From: Shigella phage TB004
Sequence record: MW822011
Length of the DNA stretch: 64,000 bases
Strand: one strand, 5' to 3'
Shown: positions 3,816-14,427 of the stretch, one piece after another
Numbering within the stretch: the stretch's first letter is position 1
Layout: the number at the start of each line of letters is the position of its first letter
The notes under the pieces: model-generated
Told to the model about the DNA's origin: nothing
What the model saw: only the letters and a program-made list of their open reading frames with translations
The model's database searches: none
Position numbers and translations under genes: made by a program

Positions 3816-4088
3816 ATGAAAACATTTAAAGAATTTATCAATGAAGCTACTTTTAACGAAAAAGTAAAAATTAGTAAAGCTGTCAAGACTTTGATTGCTG
3901 ACATCAATTACCTATATGATATTGATTTAACTGACTATGTAACAGTTGGTAACAAACGTAACTTTTTCGTGTTTGACATCTCTGAACTTGACCAGAATCA
4001 AATTAACAACATTGAGCGTTTTGCTAATGATAAGGGTCTTCGTCATGAGTCAGCGGGTTATAAAAAATACGCAATTTATTTAAAATGA
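3816..4088 (+). CDS. ipI: internal protein I (capsid-targeted, IPI-like)
   Basis: N-terminal capsid targeting sequence MKTFKEFINE; locus after 57B. Confidence 0.7.
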   Translation: MKTFKEFINEATFNEKVKISKAVKTLIADINYLYDIDLTDYVTVGNKRNFFVFDISELDQNQINNIERFANDKGLRHESAGYKKYAIYLK

Positions 4089-4148: not shown

Positions 4149-4457
4149 ATGAAAACATTTAAAGAATTTATCAATGAAGCGGCTGCGCCAAAGACATTCG
4201 TTATTAATACTCAGGCGAGTCTTGATGATGAATACGCGGAGGCAATTCTGAAGTCACTTGCTAAGAACGGTGTTGAAGTAATTGCTTCGGACTTTAAGAA
4301 AGGGGCTTCCGAGATGTTTATTTCTATAACTAAAGGATCTAAAGCTAAGATTAAATCATCATTCGGAGTTGCTCGTACCGATCAAATCGACAATCATGAC
4401 TTTAAACAAACTGGTGCTAAACGGCAGAATACAATTGCATCACGCGGAATAAAATAG
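4149..4457 (+). CDS. second capsid-targeted internal-protein-like ORF
   Basis: 102 aa starting MKTFKEFINEA (CTS); own promoter. Confidence 0.6.
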   Translation: MKTFKEFINEAAAPKTFVINTQASLDDEYAEAILKSLAKNGVEVIASDFKKGASEMFISITKGSKAKIKSSFGVARTDQIDNHDFKQTGAKRQNTIASRGIK

Positions 4458-10598: not shown

Positions 10599-10954
10599 AT
10601 AAAGTCAAATATTCGCTTCCTGAGTCATTTTTAATTTTTGCTGTGGCGTTGGCTGCAGCTCTTGCCGGTAGTCTTATTGGATTAATGATTGACTGTATTA
10701 TTTTAAACATCCGCAGTAACGTCAGCGGTATAGTAGATATAATAGAAGTTTGGAGTGAACTTCATTATACTATAGCAATTTCATTATTTTCATTCTTTAG
10801 CATCATTTTATATTTTCATTATGATAATTTTAAAATAAATTGGCAAAGAAAAAAGGATTACAAAATACAATTAAAAGAATATAATAACTACATGTCTTAT
10901 ATTGAAAATGAATCAATGAAAGAGTTTGTGAGTGATTGTAGGAAAATCAAATGA
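10580..10954 (+). CDS. small membrane protein, paralog family member 2
   Basis: 124 aa, TM helices, C-terminal FVSDCRKIK. Confidence 0.5.
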   Translation: MQKPKLNKVKYSLPESFLIFAVALAAALAGSLIGLMIDCIILNIRSNVSGIVDIIEVWSELHYTIAISLFSFFSIILYFHYDNFKINWQRKKDYKIQLKEYNNYMSYIENESMKEFVSDCRKIK

Positions 10955-11069
10955 TTTTAAAAACTCGCTGGTATGATTTAGATGATGGGGACGATGGCAT
11001 TTCAGTCGATAGAGTTGACTGGAGCGGCTGTTCCGAAGATATGAAAATTTGCTGATTAGGGAGTTTAGA

Positions 11070-11419
11070 ATGGGATATCAACCAGTTAAGCCATCTACTG
11101 CAACAGATGATAAATTCGTGTGTATTCGAAACGGCCGCGCTAAATTAACGAACGCTGATTGGTTTACAGGCAAGAATATGCTTCTATGGTATATCATTAG
11201 TCTTCCTGTGTCATCATTCGTATTTTATTTCTTTGGAAAAAATCCAATGGATAGAATAGGAGATTGGGCTCTTTTTACTCTGCTTGTTAATATTTTTATA
11301 ACAGCAATACTATCAGGAATATGGTGCGTGTTCATTGAAATGCCATGGCGGTTACGTAGACAGCAAAAGATTTTTGATGAAAAGAAATATACTCAAAATT
11401 TAAATAATTTTATCACCGA

Positions 11420-11438
<19 letters not shown>
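11070..11438 (+). CDS. small membrane protein, paralog family member 3
   Basis: 122 aa from ATG 11070, TM helices, C-terminal FITECRKLK. Confidence 0.5.
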
Positions 11439-12405
<967 letters not shown>

Positions 12406-12476
12406 AGTTGTTTACTTTCTCCTAAAACTGTGATAGTATATTCACAGTTACTAATTAAAATATTTAAAGGAAACAC

Positions 12477-13044
12477 ATGAAAACCTATAAAGAATTTATC
12501 GCTGGAAAAGGCCAAAGGCATTAATAAAGATGAGTGGACTTACCGAGGAAACGGCTTTGACCCTAAAACAGCCCCTATTGAACGATACTTAGCTACAAAA
12601 GCTTCCGACTTTAAAGCTTTCGCTTGGGAAGGACTTCGCTGGCGTACCGATCTAAATATTGAAGTTGATGGGCTTAAATTTGGCCATATTCAAGATGTTG
12701 TTGCTAGTAACTTGGATGCAGCTTTTGTTAAAGCTGACGGTGACCTTCGTCGCTGGAATTTAAAACTATTCTCTAAACAGAAAGGCCCGGTGTTTGTGCC
12801 TAAAGCTGGTAAATGGGTTATTGATAATAAATTAGCTAAGGCTGTCAACTACGCTGGTCTTGAATTCGCCAAGCATAAATCATCATGGAAAGGTCTTGAT
12901 GCAATGGCCTTCCGTAAAGAATTTGCTGATGTTATGGCTAAAGGCGGCTTTAAGGCAGAAATAGATACCTCTAAAGGTACGTTTAAAGACGCTAATGTTC
13001 AGTACGCTTACGCTGTTGCTAATGCAGCCCGTGGTAATTCTTAA
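12477..13044 (+). pseudogene. ipIII: internal protein III gene, frameshifted after the capsid targeting sequence
   Basis: MKTYKEFIA then stop after 15 codons; remainder of IPIII-like sequence open in +1 frame; one extra G near 12504. Confidence 0.55.
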
Positions 13045-13152
13045 TAAAGCCGAGTTCGAACCCGGTAATAGATAAATATAGAAACAGACAATTCGCACGC
13101 ATGAATTGTCCCAAACTTAAAGAATAAAACTATTTACATTTAAAGGAAACAC

Positions 13153-13455
13153 ATGAAAACATATCAAGAATTTATTACTGAAGCGCGAGTGAGTGCAGGT
13201 AAATTAGAAGCCGCTATAAATAAAAAGGCCCATTCATTTCACGATTTGTCCGATAAAGACCGTAAGAAACTTGTAAGCCTTTATATTGACAAAGAGCGTA
13301 TTCTCGCTCTTCCTGGCGCTAATGAAGGTAAACAGGCCAAGCCTTTGAATGCTGTCGAAAAGAAAATTGATAACTTTGCTTCTAAATTCGGTATGTCTAT
13401 GGATGACCTTCAGCAAGCGGCTATCGAAGCAGCTAAAGTAATTAAAGGTAAATAA
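13153..13455 (+). CDS. ipII: internal protein II
   Basis: 100 aa with CTS MKTYQEFITE; matches recalled T4 IPII. Confidence 0.8.
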   Translation: MKTYQEFITEARVSAGKLEAAINKKAHSFHDLSDKDRKKLVSLYIDKERILALPGANEGKQAKPLNAVEKKIDNFASKFGMSMDDLQQAAIEAAKVIKGK

Positions 13456-13512
13456 CAGTTTACTTTCTCCTAGAATTGTGATAGTATATTCATAATTACT
13501 TGGAGGGGTAAA

Positions 13513-13877
13513 ATGACTCGTATTAATTTGACTTTAGTATCTGAACTTGCTGATCAACATTTAATCGCGGAATACCATGAATTGCCGCGTGTTTTTGATA
13601 TAATTCGTAAACACGCGGCAAATGGAAAAATGATTATAATCCATGCAAATCAGCTATTAAGTTGAGTCAACAACGACTCGATGAAAAAATTTTAATGAAG
13701 CCGCATTGGTATAAGTATTACGGCAAAAATATTTACATTCAAATAACATGGGAACAAGCTGGACCTCATGATTCTGTGAGGGATTCCCGCCAACCTGTAA
13801 TAAGGTCGAGCCCAAGTGCGGTAATGGGTAAATACAGAAATGGACAATTCATGCGCCACGGAATGGCCCAAATTTAG
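13513..13877 (+). pseudogene. denV: denV (endonuclease V) remnant with internal out-of-frame deletion
   Basis: N-terminal 39 aa match T4 EndoV, then frame breaks; C-terminal ...SQQRLDEKI..WYKYYGK.IY in another frame. Confidence 0.6.
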
Positions 13878-13887
13878 AGATAACAAA

Positions 13888-14427
13888 ATGAGAACATTTT
13901 TAACTGGTCCTTATCTATCCCTGATGAATGCTTTTACACACCATTCTGATGCTAGAGTAGAAGAAATTTGTAAAAATGATTATATCCCACCATTCGAAGA
14001 CTTACTCAAACAGTATTGCACACTTCGACTAGATGGTGGACGTCAATCCGGTAAATCAACTGCAGTAACTAATTTTGCCGCTAATTGGTTGTATGACGGT
14101 GGAACAGTTATTGTTCTTTCTAATACTTCAGCTTATGCTAAAATTTCTGCGGGCCACATTAAAAAAGAGTTTTCTCGTTATTCTAGCGATGATATTCGAT
14201 TCCGCTTATTTACCGATTCTGTCCGTAGTTTTATCGGTAATAAAGGAAGCAAGTTCAGAGGTTTATCGCTTTCGCGGATTTTGTATATAATCGATGAGCC
14301 TGTTAAATCTCCTGATATGGATAAAATTTACGATATTCATATTGAAACTGTGCACCACTGTTGCAATAGTAAATGCTGCATTGGTGGTATTACTCGTCCA
14401 CAGTTTTTCATAATCGGAATGCAATGA
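13888..14427 (+). CDS. P-loop NTPase-like protein
   Basis: Walker A GGRQSGKST and Walker B-like ILYIIDEP; 179 aa. Confidence 0.5.
   Translation: MRTFLTGPYLSLMNAFTHHSDARVEEICKNDYIPPFEDLLKQYCTLRLDGGRQSGKSTAVTNFAANWLYDGGTVIVLSNTSAYAKISAGHIKKEFSRYSSDDIRFRLFTDSVRSFIGNKGSKFRGLSLSRILYIIDEPVKSPDMDKIYDIHIETVHHCCNSKCCIGGITRPQFFIIGMQ

Follow-up and report, generated by a model that had tools for sequence, protein, structure and literature searches.

The ipIII gene of Shigella phage TB004 (MW822011), at positions 12477-13044 of the 64,000-nucleotide stretch of DNA analysed here (the window), is most probably a real and recent null allele. A single microhomology-mediated deletion of 11 bp would have taken Glu10 of the capsid-targeting sequence (CTS) together with the first three residues of the mature protein and shifted the frame, leaving a 179-codon ipIII body without a start codon or a targeting signal in a lineage presumably under relaxed selection for the functions of e.2, ipIII, and denV. 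The event is probably one of ordinary decay in a dispensable accessory anti-restriction gene, new as an allele but of a known kind, and calling for no new mechanism. The window is a Tequatrovirus (T4-like) segment in which the order nudE-e-ipIII-ipII-denV is the same as in T4, JE01, and VIPECOOM01, and the split gene occupies the hyperplastic ip locus, flanked by the lysozyme gene e on one side and by ipII/denV on the other. Its elements are as follows.

12465-12476, plus strand: ribosome-binding region of ipIII, TAAAGGAAACAC, intact and the same as that upstream of the ATG in JE01, Shfl2, and VIPECOOM01
12477-12524, plus strand: residual 5' ORF of ipIII, consisting of CTS codons 1-9 (MKTYKEFIA), then out-of-frame GKGQRH and TAA
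12503-12505, plus strand: deletion junction, at which the 11 bp AAGCTTCTGTG (or an equivalent register) are absent relative to six aligned relatives
12505-13044, plus strand: ipIII body, read in the +1 frame as EKAKGINKDEW...ARGNS, with its stop at 13042-13044

The original prediction, that an ORF opening with the CTS MKTYKEFIA ends after 15 codons and that the remainder of an IPIII-like protein lies open in the +1 frame, is borne out on both counts. The start codon at 12477-12479, preceded by the conserved AAAGGAAACAC, opens a 15-residue peptide (MKTYKEFIAGKGQRH) that ends at TAA 12522-12524, with a second TAA adjoining at 12525-12527. The +1 frame is free of stops from 12481 up to TAA 13042-13044 and encodes ...EKAKGINKDEWTYRGNGFDPK...ARGNS; over the 179 codons from 12505 the body frame contains no stops, whereas the two remaining forward frames contain 5 and 34. 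Homology to T4 IpIII (Ip3) extends over the mature protein in comparisons with five annotated IpIII proteins, the body being 94% identical at the protein level to T4 IpIII and 97-99% identical to those of JE01, Shfl2, VIPECOOM01, and KIT06, and nucleotide identity between the window and T4 is 86.5% over a local stretch of 901 bp (12300-13200). A Pfam scan of the frame-restored IpIII returned no match and is uninformative, PF26861 and PF26874 being listed for the products of the relatives. By chance, 0.01 matches to the CTS pattern would be expected in the window, and five are present. Judged on these sequence features, ipIII of the window is a genuine split gene rather than a chance ORF. It resembles T4 ipIII/Ip3 (PF26861 Phage_T4_IpIII) in its locus, its ribosome-binding site (RBS), and CTS codons 1-9, but differs in the loss of Glu10 and Ala-Ser-Val, in its shifted frame, and in the separation of CTS and body, and it is predicted to be non-functional.

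The body of the gene has been orphaned. It lacks the CTS, and no canonical start before GTG 12790 bears a Shine-Dalgarno (SD) motif. The claim that its frame has no ATG before 12712 holds insofar as no canonical in-frame start precedes that position, but the first ATG, GTG, or TTG in the IpIII frame, at 12712, is a TTG, and it lacks an SD; an ATG at 12716 is out of the IpIII frame, and the earliest in-frame ATG is at 12904. Initiation at GTG 12790 would yield only 84 aa of IpIII. As in a pseudogene, no alternative canonical start with an RBS rescues a near-full-length IpIII, and the gene no longer has a complete CTS (MKTY[KQ]EFIAE) that ends in the I-x-E prohead-protease site and reads on in frame into the mature protein. 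The ribosome-binding region has a counterpart at ipII, whose start at 13153 is likewise preceded by AAAGGAAACACATG. A scan of 12350-13200 for sigma-70 promoters found none, which says nothing about T4 middle or late promoters.

The cause of the split is not the extra G that had been proposed. A DNA alignment with six relatives (JE01, Shfl2, T4, VIPECOOM01, KIT06, and VEc74) places 11 consecutive bases missing from the window, ATCGCTG[AAGCTTCTGTG]GAAAAGG, and excludes a one-G insertion as the lesion; the comparison with T4 ipIII that had been suggested thus combines the high protein identity given above with an 11-bp gap in the window. The junction now reads ATCGCTGGAAAAGG, and the TG found at both edges of the deletion constitutes a 2-nt microhomology, with three equivalent registers. 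Lost with the deletion are the second and third codon positions of Glu10 and the codons for Ala-Ser-Val. Glu10, the final CTS residue, occupies P1 in the I-A-E prohead-protease site, whereas Ala-Ser-Val form residues 1-3 of mature IpIII, the annotation of T4 record X04567 assigning residues -10 to -1 to the signal and 1-183 to the mature protein. The break, described in the original prediction as falling immediately after the CTS, is indeed at the boundary between CTS and mature protein, but it removes Glu10 and mature residues 1-3. Relative to the intact orthologues, the 11 bp are not divisible by three, and it is because of their loss that the body stands in the +1 frame and that a premature stop arises at 12522.

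Dropping one G at about 12504 does restore the frame, as had been claimed, but the product, MKTYKEFIAE-KAKG..., still lacks the A-S-V-E/V residues that are kept in all five aligned relative proteins. The choice between a null allele and a sequencing error was therefore rightly framed, but a single-base error alone cannot account for the sequence, because the G-removed product would still be without four residues present in all the aligned relatives. This option hence entails that a unique 12-bp in-frame deletion coincided with a spurious G at its exact junction, and one real 11-bp deletion appears, from the alignment, much more parsimonious.

An assembly or consensus artefact, in which the true genome would be full-length or carry a 12-bp in-frame deletion, the extra G at 12504/12505 would be spurious, and IpIII would be functional, is unlikely. 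In the 12-bp variant, the deletion would fall between GAA repeats, GCT[GAAGCTTCTGTG]GAAAAG, giving the sequence ATCGCTGAAAAGG and a product in which MKTYKEFIAE is followed at the cleavage site by KAKG..., with both CTS and cleavage site intact. That removal of one G recovers an uninterrupted frame in which the I-A-E motif is intact speaks for such an artefact, but the artefact requires two rare events at one nucleotide, and GG is not a long homopolymer. A mixed stock of wild-type and deletion phage could garble the consensus exactly at the indel, and the uniqueness of the junction to the window would also suit an error, yet no other record contains either variant, 12-bp or 11-bp. The perfect preservation of the ipIII body has been counted in favor of an artefact as well; the absence of further decay is equally compatible with an artefact and with a very recent mutation. 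Relative to close relatives, the body shows 14-17 synonymous and 2-6 non-synonymous differences and, with divergence mostly synonymous and no stops, ipIII would have been under purifying selection until very recently, which implies that the lesion is young. Mis-assembly across the CTS repeats common to ipIII and ipII is unlikely, since it would be expected to fuse ipIII with ipII into a chimera instead of removing 11 bp internally.

In the collections searched, the ipIII allele was seen solely in the window, and neither reads nor a second assembly carrying it turned up. The junction 28-mer had no exact matches in IMG/VR, JGI metagenome contigs, or GTDB genome contigs. The best full-length match of 12440-12580 among 50,697 phage records was 92.1% identical, which corresponds to the 11-bp gap, so that the 11-bp and 12-bp variants of ipIII are on no phage record. 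An exact-protein look-up likewise found no record of the 110-aa and 84-aa ipIII fragments or of the 50-aa denV fragment. The closest genome over 25 kb is that of phage sutha, at about 96% identity, and a 195-aa neighbor protein was encountered on two contigs whose genes are arranged differently.

The state of the surrounding genes bears directly on the quality of the assembly. The neighborhood of ipIII comprises the following features.

10951-11438, plus strand: homologue of e.2 (Y06M), a membrane protein, split by a frame break (tblastn and alignment)
11420-11875: nudE
11911-12405: lysozyme gene e
13153-13455, plus strand: ipII, intact and CTS-bearing, with a 100-aa product (PF26874 Phage_T4_IpII)
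13513-13742, plus strand: denV pseudogene, from which about 187 bp have been lost internally and out of frame at an AATGG direct repeat, leaving a junction at 13621-13625 (alignment)

ORFs of phage sutha of at least 60 aa were translated and compared with the window by tblastn, and among the approximately 167 ORFs with hits no frame break was found on a real gene strand other than that of e.2. The genes for DNA polymerase, helicase, primase, clamp, clamp loader, gp46/47, UvsX, and NrdD are all uninterrupted in the window, and because these long essential genes are whole, the assembly is not indel-prone; with e.2 alone broken on real gene strands, a generally error-prone assembly is excluded. 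In e.2, a run of five A is short of one A (A4 at 11044-11047), changing ATGAAAAATTTG to ATGAAAATTTG. A one-base homopolymer change is typical of sequencing error, and e.2 is the sole nearby lesion that could be explained by base calling, so that, as read from the sequence, its break could be either a real frameshift or a homopolymer error; e.2 is also truncated in other phages (L030, L031). If e.2 were such an error, the ipIII lesion could be one of the same kind, but the approximately 60 kb remaining outside the 3 kb that hold e.2, ipIII, and denV show no frame breaks, which points to a very low per-base indel error rate.

Furthermore, the lesion in denV, 470 bp downstream of ipIII, is certainly real, because a 187-bp deletion, the loss of a stop codon, and several substitutions go beyond base-calling error. 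The former stop codon is now CAA (13740-13742), and the substitutions in the N-terminal part include a change to His of the conserved Arg in ..AEYRELPRVF..; the 50-aa N-terminal fragment still matches PF03013. The gene encodes endonuclease V, a pyrimidine-dimer glycosylase, and UV sensitivity is predicted for the phage. The denV pseudogene argues against an artefact in ipIII by indicating that the lineage carries decayed accessory genes at this very place. All three broken genes of the 64-kb window are non-essential accessory genes within a hypervariable interval, and their clustering appears to be what relaxed selection would be expected to produce, rather than random error. It is from these three disrupted accessory genes in a hypervariable stretch of 3 kb that relaxed selection for their functions would follow for the lineage, and a single 11-bp deletion in ipIII also fits both the adjoining denV pseudogene and the independent ipIII lesions of other phages.

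Across the Tequatroviruses, the interval from e to vs.8 (12405-13900, compared with L006-L031) is extremely mosaic, with at least six gene orders that draw on denV, ipII, ipIII, ip4/DUF7412, and small ORFs. The layouts seen include e-denV, e-denV-ip4, e-ipIII-ip4, e-ipII-denV, and e-ipIII-ipII-denV, and the mosaicism is consistent, at the level of sequence, with recombination at common promoter, RBS, and CTS repeats. Many relatives lack ipIII altogether, and where present the gene is normally intact, 258 of the 260 ipIII-carrying phage records detected by tblastn covering at least 80% of it. Escherichia phage VEc74 (MT932213) has a 17-bp out-of-frame deletion, GCTTTGACCCTAAAACA (L018, about 490-510), which lies about 60 bp into the mature region, 3' of the junction site of the window; in the VEc74 record, the annotation of ipIII is limited to a 166-aa 3' ORF. 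In ECO07P3 (OP172786; L019, 983-1497), a deletion joins codon ~75 of denV to ipIII at the RRWNLKLF region, the two genes meeting at a common TCGCTGGAAT. As in the window, these are small or medium out-of-frame deletions of ipIII with short microhomologies in otherwise complete Tequatrovirus genomes, but the sites and sizes of the lesions differ, and they represent independent events rather than the same allele. Both records annotate the ipIII remnants as ordinary CDSs. For the window, ipIII should be flagged as an 11-bp-deletion pseudogene, and not 'corrected' by removal of a G.

The consequences of the loss can be anticipated from T4. The first 10 residues of IpIII constitute the CTS, with residues 4 and 7 involved in targeting and residues 8 and 10 in processing (PMC9026906). 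Translation from the intact RBS and ATG of the window would end after 15 codons, as the reading frame demonstrates, and we infer that the phage packages no IpIII into its heads and injects none. T4 strains without IPIII are viable, with a burst of about 40% of normal and slower head maturation (PMC9026906), and, by analogy, this reduced burst suggests that the loss of ipIII may be costly. In experimental evolution of T4, ipIII has been lost repeatedly, and the clones that lost it need a supply of IpIII, which may even be CTS-less, in order to plate on ECOR17 (PMC9391042). In ECOR17, the type IV restriction system GmrS1/GmrSD2, encoded by two genes, is the specific target of Ip3, an injected inhibitor directed at one GmrSD subtype; Ip1 and Ip2 provide no cross-protection, and the ip3-less phages T2 and T6 are restricted (PMC12373910). 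From this published work, growth on ordinary hosts should continue, possibly at the price of a reduced burst, but ECOR17-type GmrS1/GmrSD2 is predicted to restrict the phage unless Ip3 is supplied, which is a testable host-range prediction. The laboratory strains share with the phage of the window the loss of IpIII, and the expected phenotype, with its reduced burst, slower head maturation, and failure on ECOR17, is taken from these viable strains; they are the result of construction or selection (the amber IPIII- and IP0 strains of Black, e-ipIII-ipII deletions, and toxIN-evolved clones), whereas the allele of the window resides in a different Tequatrovirus. The broken ipIII, denV, and e.2 genes, together with the independent ipIII lesions, point to fast erosion of anti-defence and repair genes in the hyperplastic regions of T-even phages.

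Two further explanations accept the lesion as real. On the one hand, the loss could have been adaptive, with IpIII sensed by, or costly against, a defence of the usual host and the null allele positively selected. An abrupt loss after long purifying selection would agree with this, but no IpIII-triggered system is in evidence in the present data or the cited papers. The recurrent independent losses and absences of ipIII among relatives are predicted equally well by relaxed selection, and the fact that the unrelated genes denV and e.2 have decayed alongside speaks for neutral erosion, making adaptive loss very unlikely. On the other hand, ipIII might still be expressed through recoding or non-canonical initiation, yielding a certain amount of IpIII whose CTS would be uncleavable or absent. 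Recoding would involve a +1 slip within codons 2-15, for instance of tRNA-Lys on GGA-AAA-G or at a pause on the rare CAA-AGG-C, and would profit from a +1 frame fully open from 12481 and from the re-pairing that AAA-G presumably allows to Lys-tRNA. The arrangement resembles the +1 frameshifting of E. coli prfB in that a short 0-frame ORF stops and the functional product lies in the +1 frame. Unlike programmed frameshifts, which are conserved, it is unique to the window: no conserved split was found among homologues, and VEc74, the sole other split seen, is broken at a different site. No slippery heptamer of the prfB or Ty type was found by inspection of the window's ipIII, nor does it have a correctly spaced SD stimulator or a stimulatory RNA structure, the predicted folding being no more stable than that of shuffled sequences (z = +1.01; 168 of 200 shuffles fold as well). 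A programmed frameshift is ruled out by the lack of conservation and of RNA structure, and any slipped product would in addition lack Glu10, which is required for processing (PMC9026906). Initiation could instead occur at the in-frame ATT 12520, 8 nt downstream of GGAAAAGG, an SD-like AAGG lying upstream at what would be a suitable spacing. CTS-less IpIII supplied by the host is active in the cytoplasm (PMC9391042), but the product of ATT 12520, being without a CTS, could not be injected ahead of restriction, and continued expression by either route is extremely unlikely. Taken jointly, the prospect that the split gene lives on through a low-efficiency slip or ATT 12520, or that its loss was positively selected through an IpIII-triggered defence, is a very slim one; a slip or ATT initiation would, if true, amount to a natural re-wiring of an injected anti-restriction protein into a variant with an uncleavable targeting peptide or one confined to the cytoplasm.

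Besides the probable null allele of ipIII, the window retains CTS-bearing genes in ipII, whose 100-aa product is identical to a protein in 449 collection blocks, and in two genes at the ipI locus. These and a further CTS-like ORF are located as follows.

3816-4088 and 4149-4457: tandem pair of genes at the ipI locus, with a CTS-like MKTFKEFINE start and products of about 90 and 102 aa
60177-60341: 54-aa ORF directly upstream of primase (gp61 homologue), with a perfect CTS-like MKTYKEFIKE start

The pair at the ipI locus encodes candidate injected internal proteins that, to judge by their sequences, are unrelated to IpI, IpII, and IpIII beyond the signal. The 54-aa ORF, which we take to occupy the place of T4 61.1, continues into a Gly/Ser-rich segment and then a Lys/Glu-rich tail, and its capsid targeting is putative. 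Lastly, a perfect inverted repeat with a 9-bp stem (AGACAATTCGCACGCATGAATTGTCC region) lies between ipIII and ipII, at 13086-13111, and is terminator-like on the minus strand only; a related GGACAATTCATGCG motif is present at 13841-13855, downstream of denV.
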